DNA of 64,000 nt from an uncultured bacterium (GCA_913056395.1 CAJXMG010000006.1:34408-98407); one strand, 5' to 3'; shown: positions 968 to 53,763, counted from the first letter of the stretch. The notes: generated from the letters alone by a model not told the origin. Program-made: numbers and translations.

Positions 968-3657
968 TCGGATGTTTCGCCGGTAAAGAGTGGGAAAGGA
1001 CGGTGAAGGAATCCGTCAAAAACTTCGGTAAACCCAAAGTACTGATCATCGAAAACAGGCTCACCGGATGGTCCAACGCGAACATCGCCGGATTGACCGA
1101 GTGGAATCATCGATTCAATTCTCACTGGTCCCTCCGAACCCATTTCAACAACCTGGGCATAGGTGGACCTGTTCAGCCAGGGAGCACTCCAGACCAAACC
1201 CAGACTGCTTTCAGCCACATAGTCGATGGTCGCTCGGGGTTGATTCCAGGGTCTCGGCCCCAACTCTGTCAACGTGAGATCCAAAGCAAGAACGACCAAC
1301 TCAGCGGGATCTGTCGGCTTGAACCCTGCACCACGATCTTCGAACCAATTGATCTGATTGGCCAACTGCGGCTGATTTCCCGGCAAGGCTCGCAGCAGAA
1401 CATTGAACAGCAAATTCCTGTCCTGATTATTCCAACCGAGGGTCTCGGTATTGAGTTCATCTTCAAACACCAGTTCGATCATCCTGTTGATCCAGTTTTC
1501 CTGGAGAACCCAAGCGTCTGCATTGACGGTGTTTCCAACCCAACCCTCTGGGCCACCCTCGACAAAATAGCCATCCCAACTTTCCAGGAGTTCCAGAGCA
1601 GCCAATCGATCCGGATTGAGATCCGCCTCGACCGAATTGGTAAAAAATTGATCGACAAAGAACCAGCGATTTCCGCCCTTGTTCCCCAAATTGCAACAAT
1701 CGGTGGCACTGATCTCCAAAGCCAGATCGCGTACAAACTCAAAACTCACGGGTCCGTCTTCTACAGCGACGGCCATTCTGTCTTGCATTGCGTGAGCCCT
1801 GTGGAATCGACCGTAAGCGTGACCGGGACTGGCGCCACCCGCATCGCCTTCAGCAGCTTTGTTATTCCAACCTGCAATCCAACCGCGTTCAGGGTTTTCA
1901 ACGGTGATCCGCTCCTTGTAGGTGACCGGATCGGTCCACTCCATCGATCCATCCGAGAGCTGAGGCAGGCGCGGATCAGCCCCCTCCACCCTTACCGGAT
2001 CAAGACCGGCCATCCAGTAGCCCACGTTTCCGCGGCGATCGGCATAGCAGACATGAAGACTTACGCAAAAGCGGTCCATTGCGTCAGCAAAATCTTCCAT
2101 ATTGCGGGCAAGGACGTAATCGAGATTGACGTCCACTGTCGCCAGTTCCTTCTTCCAGTGGGAATACTTCCAGGCGGCCACCGGCCCCTCCAGGTTTTCA
2201 GTGCTGAGAATGATGGGCGATACGATGGGGCCATGGACGCTGCGGTAAATCGGCAAGTTCAGAAATTGGTCATTCCCCAGAGGAATCATCTCAGTGCGAT
2301 GGAGAAAAATATCCTCTACTTCCTCAAGGTAGATATCCACGGTATGCGCATGAGCAACCTGACCGGACCACGCATGACGGGGGGTCCGGCCGATGATGAT
2401 TCCCGGCAAACCCGCCAGAGCCATTCCGGAAACATCGATTCCAGCCCCTCTCAAAGAGCCCTCTATCACCAGACCGGGAGCCGTGAATCCCATCTGTGGT
2501 CCTGCGTAGATCATCGGTAATCCGGTATCGGTCAAATCGCCACTGACGACCCATGCGTAACTGCCCATTCTCGGAGGTGTACCAATATTCGAGATACGCT
2601 CGCGCGTCCCCTCAAAAATGTCGTGAACGCCATCTCGCAAGGCTCGAAGATTGTCCAACTGGTACTGCCCTGCCTGAGGCACAGGGAGAGAAGTTGTCTG
2701 GGGAAGGAAACCGGAGGTTCCACCAGAAGGTGGAATCATCGTCGGGGCATCCGGGTCATCCAACCAACGAAGATCGTTGAACATCGCAAGACCATCCTCC
2801 GGATGACTTTCCAGAAGTTCTGCCAACAGTACTGCGTTATTCAATTGGTGAGTTGAAAGCGCTTCCGAATCGAAGTTTCTCAGCAGGGTCACCTGGAGTG
2901 CCATCATGTCAATGACGGTCCATGGAGCAGGAGAAAAACCGAATTCGACGAACTCATAGGGAAGGAGTGAGGAGTCCTGGTCGATTTCAGAGATGCGACG
3001 ATTGATTCCTGCGAGATATCCCTGCACCAATTCCTGAGCTCTCTCTGAGATTCCCTGATAACCCTCCATGTACTCATCATCTGAGTAACCCAGAATGCGA
3101 ATACTGATGTCAGTTGAGATTTGATCAGGCCCATAAATTTCAGAGAGGGTTCCTGTACAAAGTCGGCGGTAATATTCCATCTGCCACAATCGATCGACGG
3201 CGACTTCATAACCAAAGGCCTCATACATTTCGAAAAGTGTTCCACCCTCGATATGCCAGACTCCAAATTCGTCACGGTTAACCGTTACCTCAGAAACATC
3301 CGGGCATACGGAATAGCTTTGGCAATCTCCGATGGCGGAGTCTCCGCAATGGGGATAGGGATGCTTGGGCGCCGCTCCATCCAATAATTGGAATTGGATA
3401 ATCGACAAGGCATCCGCAAGGTCCACGGTGCCGTCCGCATTGAAGTCTCTTGCTGCAAAGCAGTCTCCACCTGGCCCTGATTGAAACAGATGCTGAAGGA
3501 GCCAGATTCCATCGGAGAGATTGACGGAGCCATCGACGTTGGCGTCTCCCCTGACGAAGGGAATATCAGCAGATTGAGCCACTGGCCCCCTCAGTCCGAT
3601 CAGCGAGAACAGGATCAGAGTCAAAAGAAGTCGGATAAGTGAACGTGGTTCTGTCAC
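964..3657 (-). CDS. Penicillin acylase/amidase family Ntn-hydrolase, secreted, with an N-terminal dockerin-like Ca-binding module.
   Basis: The long ORF runs 964..4269, but a hydrophobic signal peptide (LIRLLLTLILFSLIGLRGPVAQSA) follows an in-frame GTG at 3657. The segment upstream of it is Arg/Gly-rich and not protein-like. Acylase-family body (~870 aa; SGDLTDTGLPMIYAGPQMGF, YVLARNMEDF). A dockerin-like FVRGDANVDGSVNLSD...NADGTVDLADALSII...PYPHCGD sits directly after the signal peptide. Confidence 0.65.
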   Translation of the reverse strand: MTEPRSLIRLLLTLILFSLIGLRGPVAQSADIPFVRGDANVDGSVNLSDGIWLLQHLFQSGPGGDCFAARDFNADGTVDLADALSIIQFQLLDGAAPKHPYPHCGDSAIGDCQSYSVCPDVSEVTVNRDEFGVWHIEGGTLFEMYEAFGYEVAVDRLWQMEYYRRLCTGTLSEIYGPDQISTDISIRILGYSDDEYMEGYQGISERAQELVQGYLAGINRRISEIDQDSSLLPYEFVEFGFSPAPWTVIDMMALQVTLLRNFDSEALSTHQLNNAVLLAELLESHPEDGLAMFNDLRWLDDPDAPTMIPPSGGTSGFLPQTTSLPVPQAGQYQLDNLRALRDGVHDIFEGTRERISNIGTPPRMGSYAWVVSGDLTDTGLPMIYAGPQMGFTAPGLVIEGSLRGAGIDVSGMALAGLPGIIIGRTPRHAWSGQVAHAHTVDIYLEEVEDIFLHRTEMIPLGNDQFLNLPIYRSVHGPIVSPIILSTENLEGPVAAWKYSHWKKELATVDVNLDYVLARNMEDFADAMDRFCVSLHVCYADRRGNVGYWMAGLDPVRVEGADPRLPQLSDGSMEWTDPVTYKERITVENPERGWIAGWNNKAAEGDAGGASPGHAYGRFHRAHAMQDRMAVAVEDGPVSFEFVRDLALEISATDCCNLGNKGGNRWFFVDQFFTNSVEADLNPDRLAALELLESWDGYFVEGGPEGWVGNTVNADAWVLQENWINRMIELVFEDELNTETLGWNNQDRNLLFNVLLRALPGNQPQLANQINWFEDRGAGFKPTDPAELVVLALDLTLTELGPRPWNQPRATIDYVAESSLGLVWSAPWLNRSTYAQVVEMGSEGPVRIESMIPLGQSGDVRVGPSGEPVFDDQYFGFTEVFDGFLHRPFPLFTGETSD

Positions 3658-3822
3658 AGGATTCTCCTCCCGGAAAAAACTTCCGCTGTCTTCCCTATCA
3701 TATCCGCTGATATCGCCAACTCGACCCCGGGGGTATCCCCTGCCCCCGCCCAACGCTATTCTGGTAGTTGGTCTGTAAGTCCTTGTTTCACGACATTTGG
3801 GTACTTTGCCAGATCTCCGAAA

Positions 3823-4845
3823 TTGAAGATTGGAAACCCCGTGCGCAACAAACTGCCCTCTGCATTTTCTTGCCTTCTCCTGCTCCTCTGTTTCTTTCCG
3901 GTGGCTCATTCCGGTGAGCCGATCGAGGACGCGTTTGTGAACTCGGGAATCAGTATCACAGGGGGAGCACTGGAGCCCGCCTCCGCACTGCTTGACCCCA
4001 TACTCCAGAGCCAGATTGGGGCCAGCCCCCAGTTCAATCTCCTTGAGATCCGCGAGCTGGATGACCCTCAGATGCAGAATGATGACTCCATCTCTGTGGC
4101 TTCCGTTCTCGGAGTGGACGTCGACGGAGATGAAACCAACAACTTCAGTGGCAACAATCTTTTTGAAGTCACTCCCGAAAGTGTCGATGACAATGGACAG
4201 CCACTGGTCCTCTTTGAATCCGGCTCCATCGTCAGTGGAGAACTGAGCGCAGGTCCTGCAGATCTTCAAGGACCCGGTGGAATCTCCCTTCCGGGAGTCA
4301 CTCTGGAACTGACCATCGAACCGGGTGGATCTGCGGCGGTCACACCAGGGATTCCCACTGCGATTCCCGCAGAACTGTTCGATGCCATCCCCGCTCCATT
4401 TCCTTTTGACGGTTTTCCTTTCAACTACGACACCATGACCCAGGTACTCGAGTTTGTGGGAATCGTGGTCGACACGGATCTCGATGGAGACGGTGTACTC
4501 GATGCATTCAGTGTTGAGTTTTCACTGTCCTTTGTTTCCTGTGAACTGGTATATCCAGACCTGTCAGGAACTCCGTTCAGACGCGGAGACGTCGGTGGTG
4601 ACGGCACCATCGATCTCAGCGATTCCATCAACATGCTGGGATATCTGTTTACCGGTGGCGCAGAGCCCGGCTGCATGGACAGCAGTGATATTGACGACAA
4701 TGGAGTGGTCGATATTGCGGATGCGGTTCTGTTACTGGGATATCTGTTTACAGGAGGAGCTCCTCCTGCCGATCCTCACAGCACCTGTGGAGAAGACATC
4801 ACCACGGACCCACTGGAGTGCCTGATCCCTCACCAGGGCTGCTAA
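3823..4845 (+). CDS. Secreted hypothetical protein with a C-terminal dockerin-like module.
   Basis: Signal peptide (CLLLLLCFFPVAHS). C-terminus reads FRRGDVGGDGTIDLSDSINMLGYLFTGG...DDNGVVDIADAVLLLGYLFTGGAPP...CGED...C. No recognisable catalytic domain. Confidence 0.55.
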   Translation: MKIGNPVRNKLPSAFSCLLLLLCFFPVAHSGEPIEDAFVNSGISITGGALEPASALLDPILQSQIGASPQFNLLEIRELDDPQMQNDDSISVASVLGVDVDGDETNNFSGNNLFEVTPESVDDNGQPLVLFESGSIVSGELSAGPADLQGPGGISLPGVTLELTIEPGGSAAVTPGIPTAIPAELFDAIPAPFPFDGFPFNYDTMTQVLEFVGIVVDTDLDGDGVLDAFSVEFSLSFVSCELVYPDLSGTPFRRGDVGGDGTIDLSDSINMLGYLFTGGAEPGCMDSSDIDDNGVVDIADAVLLLGYLFTGGAPPADPHSTCGEDITTDPLECLIPHQGC

Positions 4846-5327
4846 TCGCGAAGCAAGGGCTGCAAGACCCGATCCATCGCCTGAAGAAAACTGGAACGAT
4901 CCCGCGGAGTAAATGGGGCCGGCCCTTTTGTTGGTAATCCCAGATCCCGGAGGTGGGTCGAGAGATCCCTTCGGGCCAACGCTTCCCCCACCGATTCCTC
5001 ATCCAGAATTCGCCCCCGTGGATCAACGACGTTTGCTCCTGCCGCAACACAACGGGAGGCAAGGGGAATATCGCCGCAAACAACCACTGTTCGGGCATCG
5101 CAGTTTTCAGCGATCCAGTCGTCTGCTGCGTCAAACAACTCAGGAACCACTTCCAATCGAAATCCCTTCCCTTGAGGGATGCGCATCGCTCGATTGGCAA
5201 CAAAAATCACCGGCAGATCCAGCCTCTTGGCCACTTTCGCAACTTCGTCCTTCACGGGACAACCGTCCGCATCGACGACAATGCGGACACTCCCCTTGTG
5301 TCGTCCTTGACCCTGAGCCTCACTCAT
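4842..5327 (-). CDS. YaiI/UPF0178 (DUF188) family protein.
   Basis: 161 aa. VRIVVDADGCPVKDEV...VIFVAN...VVVCGDIPLA is typical of the YaiI family. Convergent 4-nt overlap with the preceding gene. Confidence 0.55.
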   Translation of the reverse strand: MSEAQGQGRHKGSVRIVVDADGCPVKDEVAKVAKRLDLPVIFVANRAMRIPQGKGFRLEVVPELFDAADDWIAENCDARTVVVCGDIPLASRCVAAGANVVDPRGRILDEESVGEALARRDLSTHLRDLGLPTKGPAPFTPRDRSSFLQAMDRVLQPLLRD

Positions 5328-7537
5328 TCGCCAGACTCTTTCCCGCTGGATTGTGCCGACTGGGACCCTGAGCGTTTTTCCAATTCGGAGAGTCGCAGGG
5401 TCAATTCCCCCACATTTTCAAAAGGTACTTCGCAGACCTGATCGATGCACAAATATGCCAGCGGTTTGCCTTCCTTCGAATTTCTCCCCTTCAACACCGG
5501 AACAACTCCGCTATCCGAATCGCCATTCATGTCGGATCGGAAGGCGATCACCACTTGGGATAATCGACAATTGCGGGCAGCCCGGATCATCTCCCGGGTT
5601 TCGGACAAGTCGGGATCGCCAACGATGGCGACCACCGGTATCCCCCTGGAAACAGACTGAACGGCCAGCAACAACTCTGCAGCACCCATTGGGTAGGGAC
5701 CCACTCGCGCTAAAGAGGCTGTCACCAAATGAAGGGCCGATTCTTCATGGTCCGCATTTCCGGTAAGTTGATACATACGCAAAAGATTGCGCGCCATCGT
5801 CGCATTCCCGGAGGGCAATGCCCCATCAAAGTAGTCACGACGTCGATCGACCACGAGTTGGATCCTGTTGGGAGCCTCATAGAATCCATGACCTTCTTCG
5901 AGGGGACCAAACTCTTGTTGAACAAGATTCACCGCCTCCTCTGCTGATTGAAGGAATCGGGAATCGAAGGTCGCTTCGTACAAATCAAGGCAGCATTTCA
6001 CCCAGAGCGCAGCATCCTGAAGGGTGGCCGCGTTTCCTGCGATTCTGCTATGGCTTCCATCTGAGTCGACAAAGTGATCGACTCGCCGGAGGAAGCCGTC
6101 TTTTGTGACCATTGCTGCGGCCACCGCGGAGTGGGCTCTCCTGGCCTCATCCGCAAACCGGGTTTCTCCCAGAATCGCTGCGCCTCGGGCAAGCCCTGAA
6201 ATAGAAAGAGCATTCCAGCCAAGAATAACCTTGTCATCCCGTTTTGGTGCGACCCGTGATTCTCTTGCTTCAAGGAGTTGGGCAATTCCACTCTCGACTT
6301 GTTTCCGCAACTCACTCACCGATAGACCAGAGGACTGTGAGAGGGCTTCATAGGTCACCGCCTGCCGGGGAACACTGGCCTCCAGTTCTTCAAAATTTCC
6401 GTCTTCAGAAATCCCCAGATATTCGCAGACGTTCCTTGCAACACCCTCAGGCAACAACTCATTCACCTGATCAGGGGTCCAGACGTAATAGGATCCTTCC
6501 ACCCCACCGGAGTCGGCATCCCAGGAACTGGCAAAGCTGCCATCTTCCAGTTGGAATTGTTTCAGCATTGCATCGAGTACATTTTTTCCCATCTCCAGCA
6601 AGTCGCTTTCACCGGTCATGCGACCCACTTCAAGATAACTTTCTGCCAAAGAGCCCTGGTTGTAGAGCATCTTTTCGAAGTGAGGGACCTGCCATGCAGC
6701 ATCCACACTGTATCGATGGAATCCGCCTCCTACCTGATCAAGAATTCCTCCACGCGCCATTTCCCGAAGCACTGCCAGAGAGCGATTGACGGTGGGTATG
6801 TCCTGCGTGGACAAACCCTCACCTGCAAGAAACTCCAGAAATCTCGGTGCAGGAAACCTCGGAGCCTGTCCGAAACCTGCGGGGTTGGCGGTGTAGGTAG
6901 CTGAGGCGGTCTGGACCCCTCCTGAGAGGAATAGGTCCAGGGTCTGACCTTCATGGACCCTGTTTTCTCGGCCCTCCAGGTGTTCGATCAGTCCCTCTGC
7001 ACTCTCCTGCATGCGGGCGCGGTCTTCCCGCCAGGCTTTCTCAATCGAAGAGATCAGCTCCAGAAAACCGGGCCGGTTAAAGCGCTGACGCGGTGGAAAA
7101 TAGGTTCCTCCATAAAATGGCTTTCCATCCGGCAACAGGAATGCAGAGAGTGGCCACCCCCCTCCACCCGTCATCGCTCTCACCGCGTCCATGTAAACCT
7201 CGTCCACATGGGGCTGATCTTCACGATCCACCTTGATGGAAATGAAATGAGCATTCAGAAAAGCGGCAATCGCAGGATCGGAAAAAGACTCTCGGCGCAT
7301 CACATGACACCAGTGGCAGCTGGAATAACCGATGGACAAAAACACCGGGCGATCGAGATTGCGGGCGGCCTCAAAGGCCTCATCGCCCCAAGTCCACCAC
7401 TCCACCGGATTTTCGGCATGCTCTCTCAAATAGGCACTCGGACTGTCCCTCAATCTCCAACCACCGGTTTGGGGATCGCCACCCGCTTCGCCATCGAGTC
7501 CCATTGCATACAGTGTCGTCATCATGATCAGGACCAT
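5324..7537 (-). CDS. Thioredoxin-domain protein of the DUF255/YyaL family (N-terminal thioredoxin-like domain plus six-hairpin epimerase-like domain).
   Basis: 737 aa. N-terminal DRPVFLSIGYSSCHWCHVMRRESF is a thioredoxin-like CxxC in the DUF255 context. The long alpha-rich C-terminal domain is typical of YyaL/SPATA20-like proteins. Confidence 0.75.
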   Translation of the reverse strand: MVLIMMTTLYAMGLDGEAGGDPQTGGWRLRDSPSAYLREHAENPVEWWTWGDEAFEAARNLDRPVFLSIGYSSCHWCHVMRRESFSDPAIAAFLNAHFISIKVDREDQPHVDEVYMDAVRAMTGGGGWPLSAFLLPDGKPFYGGTYFPPRQRFNRPGFLELISSIEKAWREDRARMQESAEGLIEHLEGRENRVHEGQTLDLFLSGGVQTASATYTANPAGFGQAPRFPAPRFLEFLAGEGLSTQDIPTVNRSLAVLREMARGGILDQVGGGFHRYSVDAAWQVPHFEKMLYNQGSLAESYLEVGRMTGESDLLEMGKNVLDAMLKQFQLEDGSFASSWDADSGGVEGSYYVWTPDQVNELLPEGVARNVCEYLGISEDGNFEELEASVPRQAVTYEALSQSSGLSVSELRKQVESGIAQLLEARESRVAPKRDDKVILGWNALSISGLARGAAILGETRFADEARRAHSAVAAAMVTKDGFLRRVDHFVDSDGSHSRIAGNAATLQDAALWVKCCLDLYEATFDSRFLQSAEEAVNLVQQEFGPLEEGHGFYEAPNRIQLVVDRRRDYFDGALPSGNATMARNLLRMYQLTGNADHEESALHLVTASLARVGPYPMGAAELLLAVQSVSRGIPVVAIVGDPDLSETREMIRAARNCRLSQVVIAFRSDMNGDSDSGVVPVLKGRNSKEGKPLAYLCIDQVCEVPFENVGELTLRLSELEKRSGSQSAQSSGKESGE

Positions 7538-7654
7538 CTTTCATCCCGCCCGAGTCAGCAGTTATCCGAGGTCGTATCGGTAAAGGAGCAGTTTATCCCT
7601 CGCACTGATTGAGGGACACTCACGGGGCTGATTCATCTGCGAATCTTTGACTGG

Positions 7655-7689
7655 CCAACAAAAAAGCCCCCCCGGATTTCCGGAGGGGC
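7655..7689 (-). terminator. Rho-independent terminator for the minus-strand gene 7716..7928.
   Basis: GC hairpin agcccccccgg-atttc-cggaggggct, followed on the minus strand by TTTTTTGTTGG. Confidence 0.55.
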
Positions 7690-7715
7690 TTCCAACTTCA
7701 ACAGATCCAACCTGA

Positions 7716-7928
7716 TCAGGCGGGAATCTGCTCCTTGTTGGCAGTGAAGACGTTCGAGAAGAACGCTCCAAAGAAGGAGGCGATTCCGACCGCAGTGAAC
7801 AGATCCATGTCTGCCACCACTTTGTTGACCAGGAAGTAGGCCACACATCCCACCACTGCACCGATGAGTCCGCAGATTACGGAGTTCGTCCAGTTCCCCA
7901 TGATTCCCTCGATCCCTGCCCGGGACAC
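7716..7928 (-). CDS. GlsB/YeaQ/YmgE-family transglycosylase-associated small membrane protein.
   Basis: 70 aa with two hydrophobic helices and Gly-rich motifs (GLIGAVVGCVAYFL...GIASFFGAFF) characteristic of PF04226. Confidence 0.7.
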   Translation of the reverse strand: MSRAGIEGIMGNWTNSVICGLIGAVVGCVAYFLVNKVVADMDLFTAVGIASFFGAFFSNVFTANKEQIPA

Positions 7929-8136
7929 CGCGGCGACCGTGCCCGAACGCCCATACGGTAATCAAATCATGAATTTCTTGTCAAATGGAAGCGTCAATTG
8001 GCCAATAAACCGCATTTATGAGGGGTTCAGGAATTTCTGTCCTTCCCACCCTGATCCCCGGATTGAACCCTCCTGAGGATTTTTCAGGCGGTAGTCGGGC
8101 CGAGTTAACCCGAAGTCATTTTCGGAAAGAGGTCCC

Positions 8137-9960: not shown

Positions 9961-9977
9961 AGGCGCCCCCACACGAA

Positions 9978-10017
9978 AAAAGGCCCCGCCGGTGTTCACC
10001 GACGGGGCCTTTTTTTA
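9978..10017. terminator. Bidirectional rho-independent terminator between convergent genes.
   Basis: AAAAAA-ggccccgccgg-tgttca-ccgacggggcc-TTTTTTT. The perfect GC stem is flanked by an A-run and a T-run, so it can serve both strands. Confidence 0.7.
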
Positions 10018-10024
10018 TTAGCGA

Positions 10025-10558
10025 TCATGAGCCGGAAGAACCGGACTCCTGAACCGCCTCCGCAGAGACTCCGCTTTTCATCGAATCTTCGGAGAAGATC
10101 CTGGTCATCGCTTCTTTCCTGTAATCAAAGATCCTTGCCAACTCTGATTTGACGTAAATGGCATGGGCCAAAGATCCGAGAGGGCCGAAAGGCAGGGTAT
10201 AAGTCACCCTGTCGAAGAAATGGACTCCCCCCTCAACCTCTTTGATTTCATGGTAGTGATACCAAAGGCTGTAAGGACCAATCCTTTGCTCGTCCACAAA
10301 GGAATGTCGATCCTTGATGTGCTTGATCTCCGTCAACCATCTTTGGGATCCGATCAGTGGAATTCCGACCCGATACTCAATCAACAGACCGTCGTACATC
10401 ACCTCCGGGACATCGGTCAGAATCGAAAACGACATGTCATCCGGTGTGATGGCATCGAGGTTTCTTGGAGTACTGATGAACTCCCAGGCTGTATCGAGAT
10501 CAGTCGGCAAAGTGAGGGATCTCTCAAGATTATGGATCTTTGGCATGTCGTCCTCCAA
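10025..10558 (-). CDS. SRPBCC superfamily protein (Bet v1/START-like, polyketide cyclase/dehydrase-like).
   Basis: 177 aa. Sequence character matches SRPBCC ligand-binding proteins (WEFISTPRNLDAITPD...YRVGIPLIG...). Family-level call only. Confidence 0.5.
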   Translation of the reverse strand: MEDDMPKIHNLERSLTLPTDLDTAWEFISTPRNLDAITPDDMSFSILTDVPEVMYDGLLIEYRVGIPLIGSQRWLTEIKHIKDRHSFVDEQRIGPYSLWYHYHEIKEVEGGVHFFDRVTYTLPFGPLGSLAHAIYVKSELARIFDYRKEAMTRIFSEDSMKSGVSAEAVQESGSSGS

Positions 10559-10716
10559 CTTGTGGCACTGTCATGTCTTCTTCAGGATACCTGTGTCCAT
10601 TATCTGTCGCTGTCGACAAATTGCCTGATCTTCGGGGTCGTGAATCCGCGAATTCGCCCTTAAATTACGTCCTTCAGGTCTACTTTTCCGTTTCAAAGAC
10701 AATCCGGGAGTCATTC

Positions 10717-11550: not shown

Positions 11551-11559
11551 AGACCCCGG

Positions 11560-13787: not shown

Positions 13788-13825
13788 GATTCTTTCCCTT
13801 CAAGGCTCTCAGATTACCTCAAAAT

Positions 13826-13854: not shown

Positions 13855-14005
13855 ACCCTCTTTGCAAAACCTTTACACAAAACTATTCGCAACCCTTATA
13901 TCGCTTACCTACCCTCCAAACCATCTTCGCAAACGTCAATTTATTAGACGCTTTTCGAAGACAGTTTTAAAGCAAACCACCAAATAGGGGGAAATCGACA
14001 TTCCG

Positions 14006-38146: not shown

Positions 38147-38149
38147 AAG

Positions 38150-44791: not shown

Positions 44792-46721
44792 GATCTGGAC
44801 CCGGGGTACCCACCGGCGGTGGGATGACCACGGTCCCCTCAAACAGGTACTGCAGGAGAAACACGGCGTCGGAGATGTCCAGAGCGCCATCATCATTGGC
44901 GTCACCGGAATCAGGGCAGACCAGAGAAGTCACCGACCCAAAGAGGAACTCGAGCATCATGATGGGATCCGAGATGTCGGTGGTTCCATCGCCATTCGGA
45001 TCTCCGCGCAGGAAATCGTTATTGGAGGTCGGCGGTGGCAAAGTGGCACCGCCTTCATTCCCCGGACTTCCCAAATCACCTGATCCAAACGCTTGTTGAG
45101 ATGCACTCCAGGAGGAAGCGGCACCGGGCGCCGTCGTCAATAGATCCGACAACTCGCACGACTGTCCTGCAGCGTAAGGGAAAGTTCCCGAAGTGTAATT
45201 CACACGGGTATGTTCCAACCCCTGATCATCCAGGAGTACCACTTCATCGACACTGTTGGCCAGAATGAAGGAACTGTAGATATAGTCCGCATTCACCCCG
45301 CCATTGACAGTCACGTCACCGGATCGGGCAAAAACCAGAAAACCCAGTGGCGGAATAACCAAACCTCCGGGCGCAGAGATCAGATGAAAATCGGTGTCGT
45401 CATCTCTCAGGGTCCAGCCATTGAGGTCAACAGCGTCCGCTCCCCTGTTGAAGATTTCGAGCCACTCCCCTGTGGAATCACCCACAGCCTGCGGATTGGC
45501 CATCACTTCTGATATCACCAGATTTACATCCCCCGGATTGGGTGGATTGCCCCCGCAAGCAGTCCCGGTGATGGCCGTTCCTGAAGCAGAAGCACTGGCA
45601 GAACTTTGATTTCCTGAGAGGTCGGTCGCTGTCACCTGGTAATGATAGGCCACGCCACCTGTCACAGTGGTATCGGAGAAGGCACTGAGAGAGGTACTTC
45701 CAACAGCACTAAAGGGACCTGCAGCAGAAGTCGAACGAAAGACGGTGTAACTTGCCAGATCTGCTTCAGTATTGTCGGCCCAATCGAGAATCAACTCACA
45801 GGTAGCGGCTGTGACCAGAGGCGTCGCCGGAGCCGCTGGAGGAGTGGTGTCAGTGGTAGGACAAGTCCAAATTTGACACACAAATTCGGGGTGATCGATA
45901 AAAGGATTTCGATTCCCCTGGTAGTCAAAGATCACATCGTTGCGATTTTGCTCAGCCACACTGACAGGATCTTCCAAATGCCACTCCAAAAGCACTGAAA
46001 GGAGCCCCATATAAGCTACAGACTGATTTTGATTCGTATTGGAAACGATCAGGCTGCGGTTATCCGTGATTCGCAAGTCTGGCTCGCTGCAACCGGTGAT
46101 CGAGTGATTACCACCTTCATAGCGCATGTCCATGTAGAAGATGTTGCGGGCAACATCCCCGCGTCTGTCTTCCCATGTCTCCCATGATCCTGTGCTGCCG
46201 AATCCACTGGAGAAGTTGGAAAAAGCGGTTCCCTCAGCAACAAAGGATTCACAGTTGGCGGAAGTGCACCAATCGTAGGGTCTGTTGCCTCTGGCAGAAT
46301 TGTAACTTGGACTGGCAGCCCTTAACTGGTGCAAATCGGTGTAGGGGTAATTACAACCGTTGTCATTGGTGTAGCCGAAGGAAGAAGGCCAGGTGTGCTC
46401 CCGATTCCAACCGATACTGGTGTTTTGTTCTGTCCGTAAAACAGAAGTGTTTCGGTAGATAGTGATCAGTCTGGAAGGATCGTTCGGGTCCTGCTCACTG
46501 ATCCCCAAAACATCCCAGGTATCGGTAGCGGAGCTGGTGTAAGGCAGTCGCTGATGGTCATCCACGATCTCGTGAAGAGCGAGCCTGAGAGACTCTCCGG
46601 TCAATCCGGTGGCGGACGAGTAATACCCGGGAGGAGGATCCGCAAAGGCGACATTCCACCCCAGAAGCCCGATGATTCCCACCATTAACGAGAGTCTGCA
46701 TGTCTTGAAAATAAAGCGCAT
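44766..46721 (-). CDS. Secreted endonuclease I family DNase fused to a fibronectin-III-like domain, a lamin-tail domain (LTD) and a C-terminal dockerin-like module.
   Basis: Signal peptide. Endonuclease_1-like WNREHTWPSSFGY...DLHQLRAASPSYNSARGNRPYDW. FN3-like segment. LTD NLVISEVMANPQAVGDSTGEWLEIFNRGADAVDLNGWTLRDDD. C-terminus FLRGDPNGDGTTDISDPIMMLEFLF...NDDGALDISDAVFLLQYLFEG...PGPDP...GC. Confidence 0.75.
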   Translation of the reverse strand: MRFIFKTCRLSLMVGIIGLLGWNVAFADPPPGYYSSATGLTGESLRLALHEIVDDHQRLPYTSSATDTWDVLGISEQDPNDPSRLITIYRNTSVLRTEQNTSIGWNREHTWPSSFGYTNDNGCNYPYTDLHQLRAASPSYNSARGNRPYDWCTSANCESFVAEGTAFSNFSSGFGSTGSWETWEDRRGDVARNIFYMDMRYEGGNHSITGCSEPDLRITDNRSLIVSNTNQNQSVAYMGLLSVLLEWHLEDPVSVAEQNRNDVIFDYQGNRNPFIDHPEFVCQIWTCPTTDTTPPAAPATPLVTAATCELILDWADNTEADLASYTVFRSTSAAGPFSAVGSTSLSAFSDTTVTGGVAYHYQVTATDLSGNQSSASASASGTAITGTACGGNPPNPGDVNLVISEVMANPQAVGDSTGEWLEIFNRGADAVDLNGWTLRDDDTDFHLISAPGGLVIPPLGFLVFARSGDVTVNGGVNADYIYSSFILANSVDEVVLLDDQGLEHTRVNYTSGTFPYAAGQSCELSDLLTTAPGAASSWSASQQAFGSGDLGSPGNEGGATLPPPTSNNDFLRGDPNGDGTTDISDPIMMLEFLFGSVTSLVCPDSGDANDDGALDISDAVFLLQYLFEGTVVIPPPVGTPGPDPTADGLGC

Positions 46722-47055: not shown

Positions 47056-49263
47056 ATGAAGATGGTCCCCCACCTCCTCAGAATCGTCTATCTCTCTGTC
47101 ATCACCTGGTTGTGTCTGATGACCGGAAATCTGTACGCCCAAAACTGGACAATCAGTGGCACTGTGGTCGATGCGGTGGGAAACCCCATTTCCGGAGTCG
47201 ACCTCGATTTGATTGATCCACTCTCGCCTACCACCGTGATCCCCATCACAGGTGACACCTCTGCCGTCGACGGTAGCTTCCTGATTTCCATCAACACCAC
47301 CATTGCTGCAGGAAACTACTTACTTCAGTTTGAACCCAGCACCGCCCACCTTCCGGACGAAATCGACATCAACCTTAACGGCAATCTGAACATAGGGTCT
47401 CATGCATTGGCTTCAGGCTGGTTGATCTCCGGTACCGTAGTCAATACTGCCGGTACTCCCGCCTCAGGAGTGGATATCGATATTCGCGGTGATCAGGCGG
47501 GCTGGCTAGATCTCGTTGGCGATAACACCAACACTCTCGGTGAATTTTCCGTCGCTATTCCTGCGATCATCGATGAATACAGGATTACTTTTGCGGATAC
47601 TGCTTTAGACGCTGCCGTGTTTCCCATTGAAATAGATTTAGGCCTGCTTTTCGGAAATACGAACCTTGGAATCGTCGAAATGCCCATCGCTCATACCCTG
47701 ACAGGCTTGGTTGTCGATGAAGATGGGGTGCCGCTGCCAGGTATCGACATGAATCTTTATGACTCCGCAGGGGTAACCGTTGAACTTTTCAATGATGATA
47801 CCGACCTCCAAGGGGCCTTCAGTGTCGTTGTTCCTGAAGGAATCTTTACTGTCCGCCACAGGGATGTGAGTCCAACGCCCGGGATTGAAAGGGTGAACCA
47901 CGAAATCGCAGACCTGTCGATCTTCTCCAACCTCGACCTTGGAACCATCGTCATGCCGATTGGTTATCATGTTCAAGGGACCGTAGCCGGTTCTGCAGGA
48001 GAGTTGATCGCCGGAGCAGATTTTGACGCCAAGTACGCGGCGACGGGTCTGCCCATCTCTATTTCTTCAGATACCACGGATGTCACGGGTTCGTTCGATC
48101 TTCTTCTTCCAGAAGGAAATATCATTCTTGAAGTGGACCCTCCCCTGACGGGACAGGTCAGGGTCTCCAAGCAGATTCAGGTATCGATTGCCCCTGTCAG
48201 CCCTGTCAGCATTGGTCAGATCATTCTTGATGACGGAGTCACCGTCAGTGGTTCATTCACCGACTCCTCAGGGAATCCAGTTCCCTCAGTGGATGTCGAG
48301 TTCTACCTGTTCAGCACCGGACAGGTCTACGAGACTCTCCATGAAAATGGTAATCAAGCAGGAACCTTCAGTGCAAATGTACACACCAATGACTACAACT
48401 TGACCTTTACCCCCCCTGTTGCCAGCGGCCTCGGCCCCTTCTTTCTGATGAATGTCGAGTGTTATTCTGCGAGGGATCTGGGAACACTTGTACTCAGTCC
48501 TGCCGCAACCTTGTCAGGCAGTGTCACCAGCTCTGGTGTGGGACTGGAAGGCATTCAGATTACTGCGGTCGATATGGCCAGCGGCGCTACTCCGCCATGG
48601 GGCTCAACCACCACTCAGGCTGGTGGCGGTTACTCCCTCACTTTGACTGAGGGGATTTGGTCGGTGACGGCTACTGCTCCCCCTGGAACCGGGTTGACCG
48701 ATCTTTCGGAACTCAACCTTGCGGTTTCACAGGGAACAATGCTGAACTTTGAATTCCCCAACCTTGCTCCTTCCATCACCAACCTGACCTGCACCTTCGA
48801 CGATCCTGTGGTGAATCTGAGTTGGAGTAATGGAACAGTTTACGACTGGATCAGCATCACCAGGAACGGAATTCCTTTGACAACGATTACAGGTGATCAG
48901 GTGAGTTTTACAGACTCAATGCCCGGTTCAGGAGCAATGCAATACTCCGTGACCGGGAATGTATTGGGAGTAGATTCGCCTGAGGCATTTTGCGATCTCA
49001 CGATTCCAAGACCGTTTATCCGTTGCGATTCAGATCTGGGTGGAAACATCACCATATCGGATGCCATCAATGTGCTGAGTTACCTTTTTGCGTCCTATGG
49101 GACCACTTGCACAGATGCGATGGATTGCAATGATTCGGGAGCCATCAATATTGCTGACCCGGTGATGTTGCTGAACTTCCTTTTCGGCACAGGTCCCCTG
49201 CCTTCGGCTCCCTATCCCAATGCCGGGCAAGACCCCACCCCCGACAACCTCGACTGCAATTAA
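47056..49263 (+). CDS. Secreted protein with about 8 tandem carboxypeptidase-regulatory-like (CarboxypepD_reg / transthyretin-like) domains, an FN3-like domain and a C-terminal dockerin-like module.
   Basis: Start at ATG 47056 gives the signal peptide MKMVPHLLRIVYLSVITWLCLMTGNLYAQN; the ORF-track 46672 start lacks one. Repeated ISGTVVDAVGNPISGVDLDL / LTGLVVDEDGVPLPGIDMNL units. C-terminus FIRCDSDLGGNITISDAINVLSYLF...NDSGAINIADPVMLLNFLFGTGPLPSAPYPNAGQDPTPDNLDCN. Confidence 0.6.
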   Translation: MKMVPHLLRIVYLSVITWLCLMTGNLYAQNWTISGTVVDAVGNPISGVDLDLIDPLSPTTVIPITGDTSAVDGSFLISINTTIAAGNYLLQFEPSTAHLPDEIDINLNGNLNIGSHALASGWLISGTVVNTAGTPASGVDIDIRGDQAGWLDLVGDNTNTLGEFSVAIPAIIDEYRITFADTALDAAVFPIEIDLGLLFGNTNLGIVEMPIAHTLTGLVVDEDGVPLPGIDMNLYDSAGVTVELFNDDTDLQGAFSVVVPEGIFTVRHRDVSPTPGIERVNHEIADLSIFSNLDLGTIVMPIGYHVQGTVAGSAGELIAGADFDAKYAATGLPISISSDTTDVTGSFDLLLPEGNIILEVDPPLTGQVRVSKQIQVSIAPVSPVSIGQIILDDGVTVSGSFTDSSGNPVPSVDVEFYLFSTGQVYETLHENGNQAGTFSANVHTNDYNLTFTPPVASGLGPFFLMNVECYSARDLGTLVLSPAATLSGSVTSSGVGLEGIQITAVDMASGATPPWGSTTTQAGGGYSLTLTEGIWSVTATAPPGTGLTDLSELNLAVSQGTMLNFEFPNLAPSITNLTCTFDDPVVNLSWSNGTVYDWISITRNGIPLTTITGDQVSFTDSMPGSGAMQYSVTGNVLGVDSPEAFCDLTIPRPFIRCDSDLGGNITISDAINVLSYLFASYGTTCTDAMDCNDSGAINIADPVMLLNFLFGTGPLPSAPYPNAGQDPTPDNLDCN

Positions 49264-49308: not shown

Positions 49309-52300
49309 TCAGGGACAGTTCACCTGACTGGTGCAATTCAGTGAGTCAGCAGTAGTGTCAGTCCCACAATCAGGATATGGGGATGCGGGAACAGTTGTAC
49401 CTTCAAAGACAAAGGACAATGCCCCAACCACGTCAGCAAGATCAACGACACCATTGTCATTGAAATCAGTCGCAGATTCACAAGCGACCAATCCACTGCC
49501 AAAGAGGAAATCGAGGGTCTGAATCGGATCTGAGATATCAAAACTCCCATCCCCATTCGAGTCTCCCCTGCGGAAGATCGGCAAACTGACCGTCACCGAC
49601 ACTTCCACCGGGTTACTGGTCCCACCTGCACCTGTGGCTGTGACACTCGCGGTGAATACACCTGCTGCCGAATATAGGTGTGTCGGGTTTTGTTCAGTGG
49701 AACCCTGCCCATCTCCGAAAGACCAGTTCCAGGTCACACCGGCAACATTCGAGGTTGCAGAGAACTGGACCGGAGATCCCAACTCTACCGCTGAGAGATT
49801 GACGAATGCTTCCACTACAGGAATAGGGGCTGCCTGAACATCGACTAGGCAGGAAGATGGACTACTGGGCACGCCTGAAGACTCGACCGTCACTTCATAA
49901 GTGACGATTCCCGACGGAGCATTGGTGTCGGTGTAGGCCGTGATTCCACTGGGCAAAGTAGCAATTAAAACTCCATTCCGACTGACGGTCAGAGCCGAAC
50001 TCCCCGGTAAAACACTCCAGCTCAAATTAGCTGTCAAAGGTTGAGGACTGACACAGGTCAACCCCGAGACAGGGGCAGGAGGAACAGAAAGAGTGCATTC
50101 AGTTGCAGGAGCGATCAGACTTCCTGCTACTGCCACTACTGAATAATCCCTGAGGCCACCTGGTGGAGAAGTCTCCTGATAGAAGTTCGAACTTCCGGGC
50201 AGGGTTGCCAACAGAAGTCCATCTCGACTCACTTCCACCGCACTCAGTCCGTTTTCCACGGACCAGACCAGAGTCGCCGTTCCACCAGAAAACTGACAGT
50301 CCAGATTACTCACCGGCAGAGGATTGCGCGTCAATTGACAAACCTGTTCGTCACTCTGAACGGAAGAAACCACTCCCCTGATCGAGTAGGAGTAAGAGCC
50401 GGGATCGACCGCTTCAGTGTGGGTGGTCGAATTTCCGGGCAATGTGGCCACTTCGACGCCGTCCCGTCGAATCACGATGGATCCGTATGCCTCGCCATTG
50501 CTCCAGTTCAGGACGGCATTGCCTGCGGATGAGCCGCAACTGAACCCTGATGGAGCCAGAGGTTGAATCGTCTGATTACAAAGCACTGCTGAAGAGCTGA
50601 ACGATTGTAAAACAGAGATGACAGACCACTCATGGTTACCTGCTCCAGGATCATCCTGATATGAGGTGGAACTCCCCGGAAGTGTGGCAACAAGAATTCC
50701 ATTTCGGCGAATTTCCAGAGCGTCATAGGTGTGAGAATTAGTCCAGGACAAATTGACAAGGTTCTGGTCCGACACGCAGGTCAGTGAACCCACCGGACTC
50801 GGTGGAATAAAGACACCACAACTGGCAGAAGGACTGTCTGCACCAGCGGTCACCCCTCTGACAAAATAGGATTGGGCGCCCGCGCCCGGATTGACATCGG
50901 TCAGGCTGGTACTGTTCCCAGGCAAGGAGGCGATCACCACCGAGTTACGCAATACCTCCACACTGTCGTAAACCGCAGCGTTGGACCATGACAGCAGCAC
51001 ATCGGTTCCCTGAGGGGTGCACGAAAGATTCTCGGGTGCGGGAGGAGAAATCCCGATGGTACAAGCCACCGGCAGTGAGACCTGACTTCCCAAGACCGAG
51101 GAAACCTCAATTGTATGAGATCCCACGGTCAGCCCACCAATCGTGGTCGACGTTGCTGAACCTGCCAAAACCTGTGGAGCTCCGCCGTCTACCACCAGTT
51201 GAATCGAGTCCCAGGTTCCGGTCACCGTCCATGAAACAGCGACAGAGGCACCACTCACGGTACAGATCAGATCCTGCGGAGCGGTGAGAGCACCACCCAT
51301 GCATTCGATCAGAGCATCCACCAGTTGCTGACGTGTACTGACGCCGTTCACCAGTCCCCCGTTTTCATAGGAGACTCCCAACGTCAACTGGCCGCCGTTA
51401 TCCCGGAAGACCCCAACGTCGTATGCCGGAGACTGATTGGACTGAACCACAGTTGCTCCGGGATCCGCCTGGAGACGATCAACCCAGGAATTTTCTCCAG
51501 TGTAGGTCAGCGTCAGACCAGACAAGTCGCAGCCGGTTGCGAATGCTCCGGTCACCTCTCCGAGGTTGTCGGTGGTGCTTCCGTCCGAAAGGGCGGTGAT
51601 TCCAAACTCGGCGTGAATCGGTCGCTGGGGATCGAAGAACCAGGTGTCCCCTCCCTCGATGTAGAGAGCCTGACCACCTACACCGTTGGTCAGATAACTC
51701 ACCAGGGCGGCGGACTCCTCCACCGTAATCTGATGATTGTTGGGAAACATTCCAAGCATGACCCAGATCCGGTCAAAAACATCGAGATCATTAAATGCGA
51801 GCAGATTGGAAGTGAGGATGGCACTGCGGCCGGTCTGCACCAGGTCCGTCCCAAAGACGTTTCCGGAATCCACCGTTCCTGTTCCCGGGGACCAGATCAG
51901 ATCACGGGCATCGCCGATGAGAAACAGGGAACATTGGCGGGCAATACTGGGAGTCGCTCCCACAAACCCCTGAACTTCCCAGGAGTGCTGACCCGCCGGA
52001 ACGGAAAGATCCAGATATCCGGTGGCATTCCCCGCAAGTGTGGAGATCAGAACCCCATCCCTGCGAATCGTCACCGAGTCATAAACCTCTCCCGGTACCC
52101 AACTGAGCTGCACCCCCACACCAGATTCGGTGCAGGTGAAGTTCACCGGCCCAGCAGGGCCTCCCATGAGAGCCAACATATTGGAAAGGTTGACGCGGCC
52201 GTGTCCAAAGTTGTTGTCGAAGCCCGCCGGATCTTCACCCGCTGGGCCAACCTGATCATCAGCCCCGGCCTGAAGAATTTCCTGGGCCTGAGCGGCAGTC

Positions 52301-53763
52301 AAAGCAGGATCGTGCGACAGGATGACAGCCAGTGCTCCCGCCACCACGGGTGTGGCGGAAGAGGTTCCGTTGAATCCCCCGGTGTAATCGCCATTGACCA
52401 TACCGCCAGGACCGGCGATATCGGTGGTGGCCATCAGGACGCCCGGTGCCACGACTGTTTGCTGGGGCCCGGTGTTCGAGCCCCAGAAATTCTCCCCGTC
52501 ACAGGAAGTGGTGGATTTGATCTCGTCACAGGGGCTGGTCGCACCGACTGCAATCGTCTGGGCATAGGCAGCAGGGAAGGAAACCCCCGCACTCTCGTTG
52601 CCACTGGCAAAAACCAGCAAGCATCCAAGTCCCCCGCGTCCCGTTTGCAGGGCATAGTCCATCGTGTTCGATTCTGCGGTACTGGGTGCTCCACCCCCCC
52701 ATGAATTGGAGAGAATGTCCGCACCATTGTCCACAGCCCAGGTCAGTGAATCGATGATCCAGTCATTCTGGGTCCAGTGATTGCCAAAGCCCATTCGCAC
52801 CGGCTGGATTTGGGCATTCCACGCAACTCCGGCCACTCCGAGGTTGTTATTTCCTCTGGCGGCAGCAATGCCAGCACAGCCGGTTCCATGGGAATCATTG
52901 GTATCGCAGTTTCCAGGTATTCCCTCAGGGGAAGCCTGTATTGAGACGGAATCATGACCCGCCACCATATTCGGAGCGAGATCTTCATGGTCGACATCGA
53001 CACCCTCATCGAGGATGGCGATGGTCACATTGGCTCCCCCGGTTTGAATGCTCCAGGCGGTTTCTGCGGAAATGTCGACACCCGGTGTTCCCTGCTGGCC
53101 AGTGTTGTTCAGATACCATTGATTGGGATAGAAGGTGTCATTCGGGGCGACCATTTCTCCCAACCTCATGATGAAATTGGGACTGGCAGATTCGACTCCC
53201 GGGAAATTTTCGAAATCCAGAATCGCACTTTCGAAATCAACCGGATTTCCGTGGCGAACGAGAAACAGAGGTTTGGTTGACGGAAATTCGCGAACGATTT
53301 TGGCCCGGTATGCATCACGGAAGCGTTGATAAACTGCGGTTTCGTAACTGGTCAGGGTCACGAGTAATTCAGGACGTGGAATATGCAAACGGCCATTAAA
53401 CTCCAGGCATGGAGCAACCCAGCCCCCTGAAATCTCTCCCAGAGATTTCAACGAATCCATCGCCACACCTCTCTCGAGGGAAACAAGATGCAGACCATCA
53501 TATGGCATTGAATCGATGGATTTCACCAGTACACCTGTTGTGCCGGCAGTCAGCAATTCATGTATCGTTGTCGGTGCGTCGGTGTCAGTCGGCAGGTAGA
53601 ACGCGATGCGATCGGAGTCAGCAGGAAGCTTGACCTTGAGATCTCCAAATGTGAAGGACATGACCTTTCGCTTGGAGTCCTGAGCTCCGACAGAAACAGG
53701 AATCGATGCGGACAGCAACACGCCCAGCATGATCAATAGGATTCTGGATGTAATCTGAATCAT
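49309..53763 (-). CDS. Subtilisin-like S8 serine peptidase (1484 aa): propeptide, catalytic domain, about 8 Ig/FN3-like repeats, a PKD domain and a C-terminal dockerin-like module.
   Basis: Catalytic triad context ILDEGVDVDHEDL (Asp), HGTGCAGIAAA (His), GTSSATPVVAGALAVIL (Ser). PKD signature WNWSFGDGQGSTEQNPTHLYSAAGVFTASVTA. C-terminus FRRGDSNGDGSFDISDPIQTLDFLF...NDNGVVDLADVVGALSFVFEGTTVPASPYPDCGTD...NCP. Confidence 0.85.
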   Translation of the reverse strand: MIQITSRILLIMLGVLLSASIPVSVGAQDSKRKVMSFTFGDLKVKLPADSDRIAFYLPTDTDAPTTIHELLTAGTTGVLVKSIDSMPYDGLHLVSLERGVAMDSLKSLGEISGGWVAPCLEFNGRLHIPRPELLVTLTSYETAVYQRFRDAYRAKIVREFPSTKPLFLVRHGNPVDFESAILDFENFPGVESASPNFIMRLGEMVAPNDTFYPNQWYLNNTGQQGTPGVDISAETAWSIQTGGANVTIAILDEGVDVDHEDLAPNMVAGHDSVSIQASPEGIPGNCDTNDSHGTGCAGIAAARGNNNLGVAGVAWNAQIQPVRMGFGNHWTQNDWIIDSLTWAVDNGADILSNSWGGGAPSTAESNTMDYALQTGRGGLGCLLVFASGNESAGVSFPAAYAQTIAVGATSPCDEIKSTTSCDGENFWGSNTGPQQTVVAPGVLMATTDIAGPGGMVNGDYTGGFNGTSSATPVVAGALAVILSHDPALTAAQAQEILQAGADDQVGPAGEDPAGFDNNFGHGRVNLSNMLALMGGPAGPVNFTCTESGVGVQLSWVPGEVYDSVTIRRDGVLISTLAGNATGYLDLSVPAGQHSWEVQGFVGATPSIARQCSLFLIGDARDLIWSPGTGTVDSGNVFGTDLVQTGRSAILTSNLLAFNDLDVFDRIWVMLGMFPNNHQITVEESAALVSYLTNGVGGQALYIEGGDTWFFDPQRPIHAEFGITALSDGSTTDNLGEVTGAFATGCDLSGLTLTYTGENSWVDRLQADPGATVVQSNQSPAYDVGVFRDNGGQLTLGVSYENGGLVNGVSTRQQLVDALIECMGGALTAPQDLICTVSGASVAVSWTVTGTWDSIQLVVDGGAPQVLAGSATSTTIGGLTVGSHTIEVSSVLGSQVSLPVACTIGISPPAPENLSCTPQGTDVLLSWSNAAVYDSVEVLRNSVVIASLPGNSTSLTDVNPGAGAQSYFVRGVTAGADSPSASCGVFIPPSPVGSLTCVSDQNLVNLSWTNSHTYDALEIRRNGILVATLPGSSTSYQDDPGAGNHEWSVISVLQSFSSSAVLCNQTIQPLAPSGFSCGSSAGNAVLNWSNGEAYGSIVIRRDGVEVATLPGNSTTHTEAVDPGSYSYSIRGVVSSVQSDEQVCQLTRNPLPVSNLDCQFSGGTATLVWSVENGLSAVEVSRDGLLLATLPGSSNFYQETSPPGGLRDYSVVAVAGSLIAPATECTLSVPPAPVSGLTCVSPQPLTANLSWSVLPGSSALTVSRNGVLIATLPSGITAYTDTNAPSGIVTYEVTVESSGVPSSPSSCLVDVQAAPIPVVEAFVNLSAVELGSPVQFSATSNVAGVTWNWSFGDGQGSTEQNPTHLYSAAGVFTASVTATGAGGTSNPVEVSVTVSLPIFRRGDSNGDGSFDISDPIQTLDFLFGSGLVACESATDFNDNGVVDLADVVGALSFVFEGTTVPASPYPDCGTDTTADSLNCTSQVNCP
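49713..51393. repeat. Intragenic repeats encoding about 8 Ig/FN3-like ~95-aa domains within the S8 peptidase gene.
   Basis: Recurrent units of the form C(T/S).SG..V.LSW....YD..E..RNG.L.ATLPG.ST.Y. They generate the antisense ORF 51325..52704. Confidence 0.5.

Follow-up and report, generated by a model that had tools for sequence, protein, structure and literature searches.

Cohesin–dockerin pairs are the classic building blocks of the cellulosome and are widely used in synthetic biology, and to our knowledge their function outside Firmicutes is essentially untested. A type I dockerin, such as those of Xyn10B and Cel48S of C. thermocellum (structures 1ohz, 2ccl and 2mte), is a duplicated segment of about 22 residues, a DxNxDGxxDxxD loop followed by a helix, and usually stands at the C-terminus of a secreted enzyme. 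In adaptor scaffoldins (Acetivibrio cellulolyticus ScaB, Ruminococcus flavefaciens ScaA/ScaB; 4uyp, 5m2s), one or more cohesins and a dockerin of a distinct subtype share one polypeptide. For freshwater Planctomycetes, a computational study has hypothesised a cohesin/dockerin complex named the "planctosome" (Andrei et al., 2019, ISME J, PMC6461901). There, the complex belongs to freshwater Nemodlikiaceae and includes M12B/M14 peptidases, proprotein-convertase P domains and a HYR domain, an anchoring protein with LTD, TSP3 repeats and cohesin, and an adaptor with dockerin, HYR and cohesin. Here we describe a stretch of 64,000 nucleotides from an uncultured bacterium (GCA_913056395.1, CAJXMG010000006.1:34408-98407; the whole stretch is called the window, and positions are counted from its first letter), in which nine proteins with signal-peptide-like N-termini carry a dockerin, in most copies extended by a Cys-bearing tail, and one of the nine appears to begin with a divergent cohesin. 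We read the locus as part of a non-cellulosomal extracellular cohesin–dockerin multi-enzyme assembly of the planctosome type, and give this reading, taken as a whole chain, a probability of roughly 0.6.

The starting data were a scan of the six-frame translation for EF-hand-type loops and the translation of nine named open reading frames. A hidden Markov model (HMM) made from the aligned nine copies, run against the six-frame translation cut into stop-to-stop segments, returned exactly nine modules with 107-126 bits, while the next segment scored 8 bits. This gap shows that the repeat is real, well outside what chance would give, and together with shuffles it ruled out an origin by chance or low complexity. 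All nine copies lie in the genes named by the original prediction, which had been made from the sequence alone. They are 85-92 amino acids long and show 36-45% pairwise identity to the first copy (MAFFT alignment). The nine modules, with their scores under our own HMM and under Pfam PF00404 (Dockerin_1), are as follows.

3295-3567, minus strand: tailed dockerin with 4 Cys, N-terminal (residues 31-121 of 897) in the acylase, gene 964-3657; own HMM 107.2 bits, PF00404 34.0 bits
4567-4842, plus strand: tailed dockerin with 4 Cys, C-terminus of a 340-residue protein of unknown function, gene 3823-4845; own HMM 118 bits, PF00404 20.0 bits
9616-9879, plus strand: variant of the module without Cys, near the C-terminus of a 607-residue protein of unknown function, gene 8137-9960; own HMM 110.1 bits, PF00404 19.8 bits
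24663-24938, minus strand: tailed dockerin with 6 Cys, in the scaffold-like protein, gene 24660-26321; own HMM 125.9 bits, PF00404 26.7 bits
26529-26789, minus strand: tailed dockerin with 2 Cys, C-terminus of the di-haem cytochrome c peroxidase (CCP), gene 26526-28094; own HMM 109.6 bits, PF00404 32.7 bits
34727-34996, plus strand: tailed dockerin with 4 Cys, C-terminus of a 1517-residue Asp/Cys-rich repeat protein, gene 30446-34999; own HMM 115.6 bits
44769-45023, minus strand: tailed dockerin with 2 Cys, C-terminus of the endonuclease I/LTD protein, gene 44766-46721; own HMM 108.2 bits, PF00404 25.4 bits
49006-49260, plus strand: tailed dockerin with 2 Cys and a degenerate Ca loop 1, C-terminus of the CarboxypepD_reg protein, gene 47056-49263; own HMM 116.9 bits, PF00404 18.9 bits
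49312-49584, minus strand: tailed dockerin with 4 Cys, C-terminus of the S8 subtilase/PKD protein, gene 49309-53763; own HMM 121.8 bits

The domains joined to the module are unrelated to each other, as had been proposed. Pfam assigns Penicil_amidase to the acylase (residues 123-858, so that the module lies between the signal peptide and this domain), CCP_MauG to the peroxidase, Endonuclease_1 and LTD to the endonuclease I protein, CarboxypepD_reg to the protein of gene 47056-49263 (in which the signal peptide starts at M129 of a long open reading frame), and S8 and PKD to the subtilase. The LTD domain that had also been assigned to the 1517-residue protein (24% Asp, 104 Cys) was supported neither by Pfam nor by BLASTP against the LTD of the endonuclease protein. 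The statement that the module ends all nine proteins holds for most of them, since eight copies are C-terminal; however, the acylase copy is N-terminal, and about 25 residues follow the module in the 607-residue protein. The tallies of dockerins and cohesins given here cover the 64-kb window, where 9 of about 48 genes carry the module, the one gene in five noted before. This density, which had been called striking, has a parallel on an unrelated 457-kb metagenome contig (L087, JGI 3300044699), where four tailed-dockerin proteins lie within 20 kb (834-15714). The clustering is thus not peculiar to the window, and it seems to be a general habit of tailed-dockerin genes. Most neighbours of the tailed-dockerin genes on that contig are unannotated.

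The first 57-60 residues of the module match PF00404. As isolated modules, eight of nine matched at E < 0.01 (the S8 copy had no match), and four reached the gathering score of 22.9 bits (34.0, 32.7, 26.7 and 25.4 bits); among the full-length proteins only CCP passed it. NCBIfam holds no model specific to the module and gave only weak matches to the CelK dockerin end. The alignment of the nine copies and a consensus of 125 sequences show two tandem segments, each with a 12-residue EF-hand-like Ca loop (D/N at positions 1, 3, 5, 9 and 12) followed by a helix; loop 1 is degenerate in the CarboxypepD_reg, 340-residue and 607-residue proteins. An AlphaFold2 model of the S8 copy, built on a 125-sequence alignment, had a mean pLDDT (predicted local distance difference test) of 95.5, with 77-95 in the tail and helices at residues 18-28 and 49-61. 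When this model was searched against the PDB with Foldseek, the top 29 matches were all dockerins from cohesin–dockerin complexes (including 4uyq_B, 8x39, 5nrk, 6kgf, 2ccl and 4fl4), with probability 0.87-1.00, target-normalised TM (template modelling) score 0.68-0.85, a range that leaves out the longer double-dockerin chains, and a root-mean-square deviation of 1.4-2.6 Å over 57-72 residues. The module, previously called dockerin-like, is thus a true dockerin by family profile, model and structural search, and we are highly confident that it has a bona fide type I dockerin fold with a conserved tail. It is best described as a type I dockerin that has been expanded in its lineage and has gained a C-terminal extension.

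Several features set this variant apart from the type I dockerins with which it shares its fold, its duplicated loop and helix, its usual position on secreted enzymes and its Pfam and PDB sequence matches. It has a tail of about 28 residues, a Cys in the linker between the repeats and an F-x-R-G-D start, and it is sometimes N-terminal or in tandem. Its cargo is not made of carbohydrate-active enzymes (it includes a DNase, an acylase, a peroxidase and an S8 protease), and its host is a planctomycete and not a Firmicute. The Arg of F-x-R-G-D, which is not found in classical dockerins, is at least 90% conserved among the 125 sequences (for example at 49570-49578 on the minus strand), so that an RGD tripeptide opens Ca loop 1 in nearly every module.

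The tail corresponds to residues 62-90 and is Pro-rich (GGxxPPxPxPxCGxDPTxDxLxCxxxxxC). In a profile search of all PDB sequences, solved dockerins aligned only to profile positions up to 61; the tail therefore has no solved counterpart, and the earlier remark that it is foreign to classic dockerins was borne out. Much had been made to depend on its conservation beyond the window, and it is kept in the 120 best outside matches, which come mostly from marine Planctomycetota metagenome-assembled genomes (MAGs). In the model, the tail packs back onto the domain, and does not form the separate unit for which the AlphaFold check had been proposed. The conserved terminal cysteines are present in part of the set: of the copies with conserved Cys, five carry all four and three carry two, while none of the four conserved positions is filled in the 607-residue protein. 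Altogether, the module has a conserved Cys in the inter-repeat linker and two to four covarying Cys. Among 483 unique modules, the patterns at positions C35/C73/C84/C90 were C-C- in 233, CCCC in 112, CCC- in 58, C--- in 36 and ---- in 19; C84 occurred without C35 once, and C90 without C73 once. DSSP applied to the S8-copy model placed isolated beta-bridges at precisely residues 35 and 84. From the co-occurrence of the Cys, and for 35/84 also from the DSSP bridges, we infer two disulfides that would fasten the tail to the domain. They are C35-C84, between linker and tail, and C73-C90, the second of which is probably present in roughly one in four of the 483 modules.

Beyond the window, 5.8 billion proteins were searched with the profile; with a limited candidate set, this returned at least 342 matches at E ≤ 1e-5. 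The named ones among these are nearly all proteins of Planctomycetota MAGs, and several are already labelled "dockerin type I domain/repeat-containing protein" by NCBI. When 1.84 billion cluster representatives were scanned exhaustively with HMMER, 46,902 matched at E ≤ 1e-3, of which 24,575 reached E ≤ 1e-10 and 608 reached E ≤ 1e-30. The weaker matches must include dockerins without the tail; the family appears large on the 24,575 representatives at E ≤ 1e-10, a figure in which the share with the tail was not counted. The 150 best representatives (P0125-P0274, from other metagenomes) are multi-module proteins, and in many of them tailed dockerins (Doc) separated by inter-module segments (X) make up the entire protein. 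Proteins with the order signal peptide-Doc-X-Doc have about 360-400 residues and those with Doc-X-Doc-X-Doc about 620-660 residues, and four-module versions were found too. Other representatives have arrays of four to seven tailed dockerins, so that N-terminal, internal, C-terminal and tandem placements all occur. On L086 (7760-10276, plus strand), a gene call described as a "92-aa stand-alone dockerin" forms the last part of an open frame of 839 codons, which overlaps with two calls on the minus strand. A long dockerin protein has probably been mis-called here, and some other short dockerins in the databases may be artefacts of the same kind.

The X segments are about 150-200 residues long, and 136 of 177 fall in one BLAST cluster. 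Fifteen of 18 diverse members matched the cohesin family PF00963 at E ≤ 0.1, the best at 7.2e-9 with 34.5 bits (gathering score 24.1); P0215 scored 33 bits, and several others stayed just under the gathering score. In addition, the X profile matched solved cohesins (3ul4_A at 1.3e-5 and 5lxv_A at 3.1e-5, and also 6kg8_A, 1aoh_A and 1anu_A, among others). On these profile matches, the domain X between the dockerins is a cohesin. X domains and tailed dockerins follow each other in turn in about 100 other proteins, and such Doc-Coh-Doc chains (Coh, cohesin), with a dockerin at both ends, could polymerise by themselves.

The original prediction stated that no cohesin-like partner is visible in the window. 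The X-family HMM, run against the window, nevertheless gave a single match, which is the N-terminal domain of the scaffold-like protein encoded by gene 24660-26321, the TSP3-repeat protein of the original prediction (72.6 bits, E = 2.4e-21). The match spans nearly the whole model with a persuasive alignment (for example, LRLTNVQASPGLPVVSRVFLNHTLDCEAFSFGVTHD against lrigdveaapGgtvevpvfltnsepvegfqlvvryD), and 500 shuffles reached at most 8.4 bits. An alignment of the orthologues compared with the X family by hhalign gave a probability of 96.8% and E = 2.7e-10 over 128 columns. By this transitive profile homology the domain is a divergent cohesin, and the protein has the order signal peptide-cohesin-stalk-dockerin. 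Besides the dockerin listed above, its parts are as follows.

25797-26264, minus strand: divergent cohesin-like domain, residues about 20-175, after the signal peptide, found with the X-family HMM
24975-25793, minus strand: stalk of 14 tandem 19-residue units DC[DN]x[DN]Gx[PL]DxC, residues 177-449, read from the sequence

The same 19-residue unit, DC[DN]x[DN]G[ILV][PL]D[SDE]C followed by 8 residues, recurs in front of the dockerin of the 1517-residue protein (34400-34726, plus strand). The repeat has no Pfam match at E < 0.01, and from its pattern it looks like a Ca-binding, disulfide-linked stalk. The dockerin of the Coh-stalk-Doc protein has, beside the usual four Cys, two more at profile positions 9 and 39, so that each Ca loop region holds one of them. 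These two covary (both present in 32 of the 483 modules, one in 12, neither in 439) and are kept in all orthologues (loci L004-L014) and in some Doc-Coh-Doc modules, and the enzyme-borne copies of the window are without them. This suggests that the C9/C39 pair marks a scaffold-borne dockerin subtype, and such dockerins may form a separate specificity class. The Coh-stalk-Doc gene adjoins the CCP-dockerin gene in all relatives whose DEAD-box helicase is 61-71% identical to that of the window; the adjacency is seen on L010 (13435-16923), L006, L008 and L011. On L010 there are two tandem CCP-dockerin paralogues, each with a poly-Pro/Gly run after the signal peptide, and the window CCP has such a run too (PPPPPPPPPGG).

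The Coh-stalk-Doc protein resembles the adaptor scaffoldins in that one polypeptide joins a cohesin to a dockerin of distinct subtype, and the dockerins of adaptor scaffoldins are among the best structural matches of the module. It differs from them in its single, very divergent cohesin without a direct PF00963 match, in a stalk of Ca-loop/Cys repeats in place of a Thr/Pro linker, and in having no known SLH or sortase anchor. Its homologues outside the window differ further, in that dockerin and cohesin alternate with a dockerin at both ends; we know of no such alternation among characterised scaffoldins.

Under the assembly reading, at least nine proteins (the acylase, the DNase, the S8 protease, the peroxidase and proteins of unknown function among them) would be exported by Sec signal peptides and would acquire their fold, with Ca and disulfides, once outside the cytoplasm. 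The dockerins would then plug, in a Ca-dependent way, into divergent cohesins including that of the window. The Coh-stalk-Doc protein could be an adaptor that docks to a further cohesin from elsewhere in the genome, or alternatively a chain-forming scaffold that builds a head-to-tail polymer.

Several points weigh against this reading. Five of the nine modules are below the PF00404 gathering score, four of them at 18.7-20 bits. The window cohesin domain has no direct PF00963 match (no Pfam family at E ≤ 5), and its nine orthologues gave no match to PF00963 at E ≤ 10. Neither phmmer with the window domain nor a profile of its orthologues found a match in the PDB, and a profile search with the cohesin profile over 8000 candidates gave nothing significant. 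The AlphaFold2 model of the domain (5-sequence alignment) is all-beta, with a pLDDT of 40.8, which is unreliable. With the direct Pfam and PDB searches negative and the model unreliable, the cohesin fold rests on profile transitivity. Binding between cohesin and dockerin, and its specificity, are read from sequence, attachment to the cell surface is presumed, and the disulfides derive from Cys co-occurrence and model bridges and not from coordinates. No cell-anchoring module was identified, so that surface display and a free complex are both compatible with the data. The count of nine dockerins to one cohesin in the window is also lopsided.

This imbalance favours a rival view of the modules as orphan dockerins, which would bind a ligand other than a cohesin (glycans on the surface of the cell itself, its outer membrane, or particles and polysaccharides of the sea) and tether their proteins without a protein scaffold, with the tail making or covering the binding surface. 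Many genomes carry dockerins without matching cohesins. Also in favour are that the one cohesin detectable in 64 kb is very divergent, that the tail is a novel surface not present in any solved cohesin-binding dockerin, and that five modules have sub-threshold Pfam scores. We regard the orphan explanation as unlikely, though the strongest of the rivals. The fusions in which dockerin and cohesin alternate in about 100 representative proteins are hard to explain unless the two function together, and the cohesin gene is kept beside a dockerin-bearing enzyme gene across relatives.

The original prediction had suggested anchoring without a cohesin or, as the other option, a sorting signal at the C-terminus. 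A sorting or secretion signal would resemble the C-terminal domain (CTD) of the type IX secretion system (T9SS), PEP-CTERM with exosortase or LPXTG with sortase, and would afterwards be cleaved or covalently anchored. The likeness is that a terminal module is common to unrelated secreted proteins at high local density: besides the eight C-terminal window copies, 110 of the 120 best outside matches have at most 10 residues left after the module, and the cargo domains are unrelated. However, the N-terminal copy of the acylase and the internal and tandem copies outside (two to seven per protein, at all positions) are incompatible with a C-terminal sorting tag. Moreover, the module is a compact Ca-binding dockerin fold and not the beta-sandwich of the T9SS CTD, and it has neither the transmembrane helix or other hydrophobic span nor the basic tail of PEP-CTERM and LPXTG signals. 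The check for co-occurrence with sorting machinery that had been proposed saw none in the window: a Pfam scan of about 37 other proteins encoded there brought up neither sortase nor exosortase nor T9SS genes. Other secreted proteins of the window, namely the FG-GAP proteins, PstS, the porin and a beta-helix protein, are without the module. A sorting signal is therefore highly improbable, the least probable of the alternatives considered, and the divergent cohesin in the same window makes a cohesin–dockerin assembly most likely in place of a new sorting system.

It could also be argued that the module is a passive domain for stability or solubility, which, loaded with Ca and locked by disulfides, protects exported proteins in seawater without any specific partner. 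The putative disulfides and the Ca loops would suit the oxidising, Ca-rich marine exterior, and the degenerate Ca loops or missing Cys of some copies (CarboxypepD_reg and 607-residue proteins) suggest a relaxed constraint on binding. Such a domain would leave the systematic fusions with cohesins and the tandem arrays of up to seven modules unexplained, and the helix faces are strongly conserved in more than 120 sequences, which argues against it. We consider this explanation improbable, less so than a sorting signal and more so than orphan dockerins.

Compared with the planctosome as described in PMC6461901, the assembly proposed here agrees in its Planctomycetota host, in the presence of cohesin and dockerin on secreted non-cellulolytic proteins, in peptidase cargo, in LTD and TSP3-type repeats within the protein set and in an adaptor with both cohesin and dockerin; both proposals are computational only. 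With this hypothesis in print, and dockerin names already given by NCBI, the claim that the system is undescribed was overstated. The differences are that the window lineage is marine, that its cargo is S8, endonuclease I, CCP and an Ntn acylase, that LTD is on the endonuclease I protein and not on the cohesin protein, and that the cohesin protein consists, apart from the cohesin, of Ca/Cys repeats and a dockerin. The concept is thus the same and the architecture different. HYR, P-domain, M12B and M14 had no Pfam matches among the window proteins scanned. The passages of PMC6461901 consulted make no reference to a tail with Cys, to Doc-Coh-Doc alternation or to a 19-residue Ca/Cys stalk, and no description of the tail or of the alternation was found in the literature searched, of which the coverage was incomplete. 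Against the type I dockerin, the tail and the covarying Cys are new and the cargo is different, and this variant is common among marine Planctomycetota; the dockerin fold and the cohesin/dockerin concept were already known.

A broader extrapolation is possible, which we put forward tentatively and think somewhat more likely wrong than right. The disulfide-stapled dockerin subfamily, together with the very divergent cohesins, may represent a widespread assembly of marine Planctomycetota for enzymes that do not act on carbohydrates (DNase, protease, acylase, peroxidase), which could polymerise by itself into chains or networks through Doc-Coh-Doc and Coh-stalk-Doc proteins and in which the C9/C39 (scaffold-borne) and the enzyme-borne subtypes would play roles comparable with those of cellulosomal type II and type I dockerins. 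The window offers a compact experimental case, with one cohesin and nine dockerins, enzymes acting on DNA, protein, acyl-amides and peroxide, and a seawater lineage. If the binding is true, the planctosome idea would be validated, it would be explained how planktonic or particle-associated planctomycetes hold their exo-enzymes together or near the cell, and a disulfide-locked, seawater-adapted cohesin–dockerin pair would become available for protein engineering.

The window belongs to an uncultured marine planctomycete. Its DEAD-box helicase is 100% identical to that of the MAG "Planctomycetia bacterium SW42618_bin_2" (JAAXJX010000005.1, a 234-kb contig) and 98% identical to that of Planctomycetota MCMED-G47, and the next relatives, including UBA1146, show 61-71%. 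The CCP gene is 97% identical to the SW42618_bin_2 copy, which indicates the same species in a different assembly; identical genes also occur on several metagenome contigs. Among 83 loci (1.18 Mb) around helicase homologues, the module was found only in the syntenic loci of close relatives and was absent from about 70 loci of genomes further away, which belong to other phyla or to less closely related Planctomycetota. A mobile island was ruled out by the even GC (guanine plus cytosine) fraction (0.50-0.57) and the interspersed housekeeping genes, and the region is ordinary chromosome. Neighbouring genes include pstSCAB-phoU, O/P porin, RlmL, an OYE reductase, PNPOx and a DUF58/VWA block, as well as a sigma-54 two-component pair and glycosyltransferases.

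A complete phosphate-uptake block (14093-19670, plus strand; O/P porin, PstS, PstC, PstA, PstB and PhoU) stands between dockerin genes, and the secreted endonuclease I-dockerin protein could take part in scavenging phosphate from extracellular DNA. The large genes that follow one another at 36043-44791 (plus strand) match DUF58 and VWA weakly and together look like a BatA/aerotolerance-type operon; two of the genes (375 and 950 residues) have no Pfam match. Finally, a 737-residue thioredoxin-like DUF255 (DsbH-type) protein is encoded at 5324-7537 (minus strand) near dockerin genes, and one may speculate that it handles the many extracytoplasmic cysteines.

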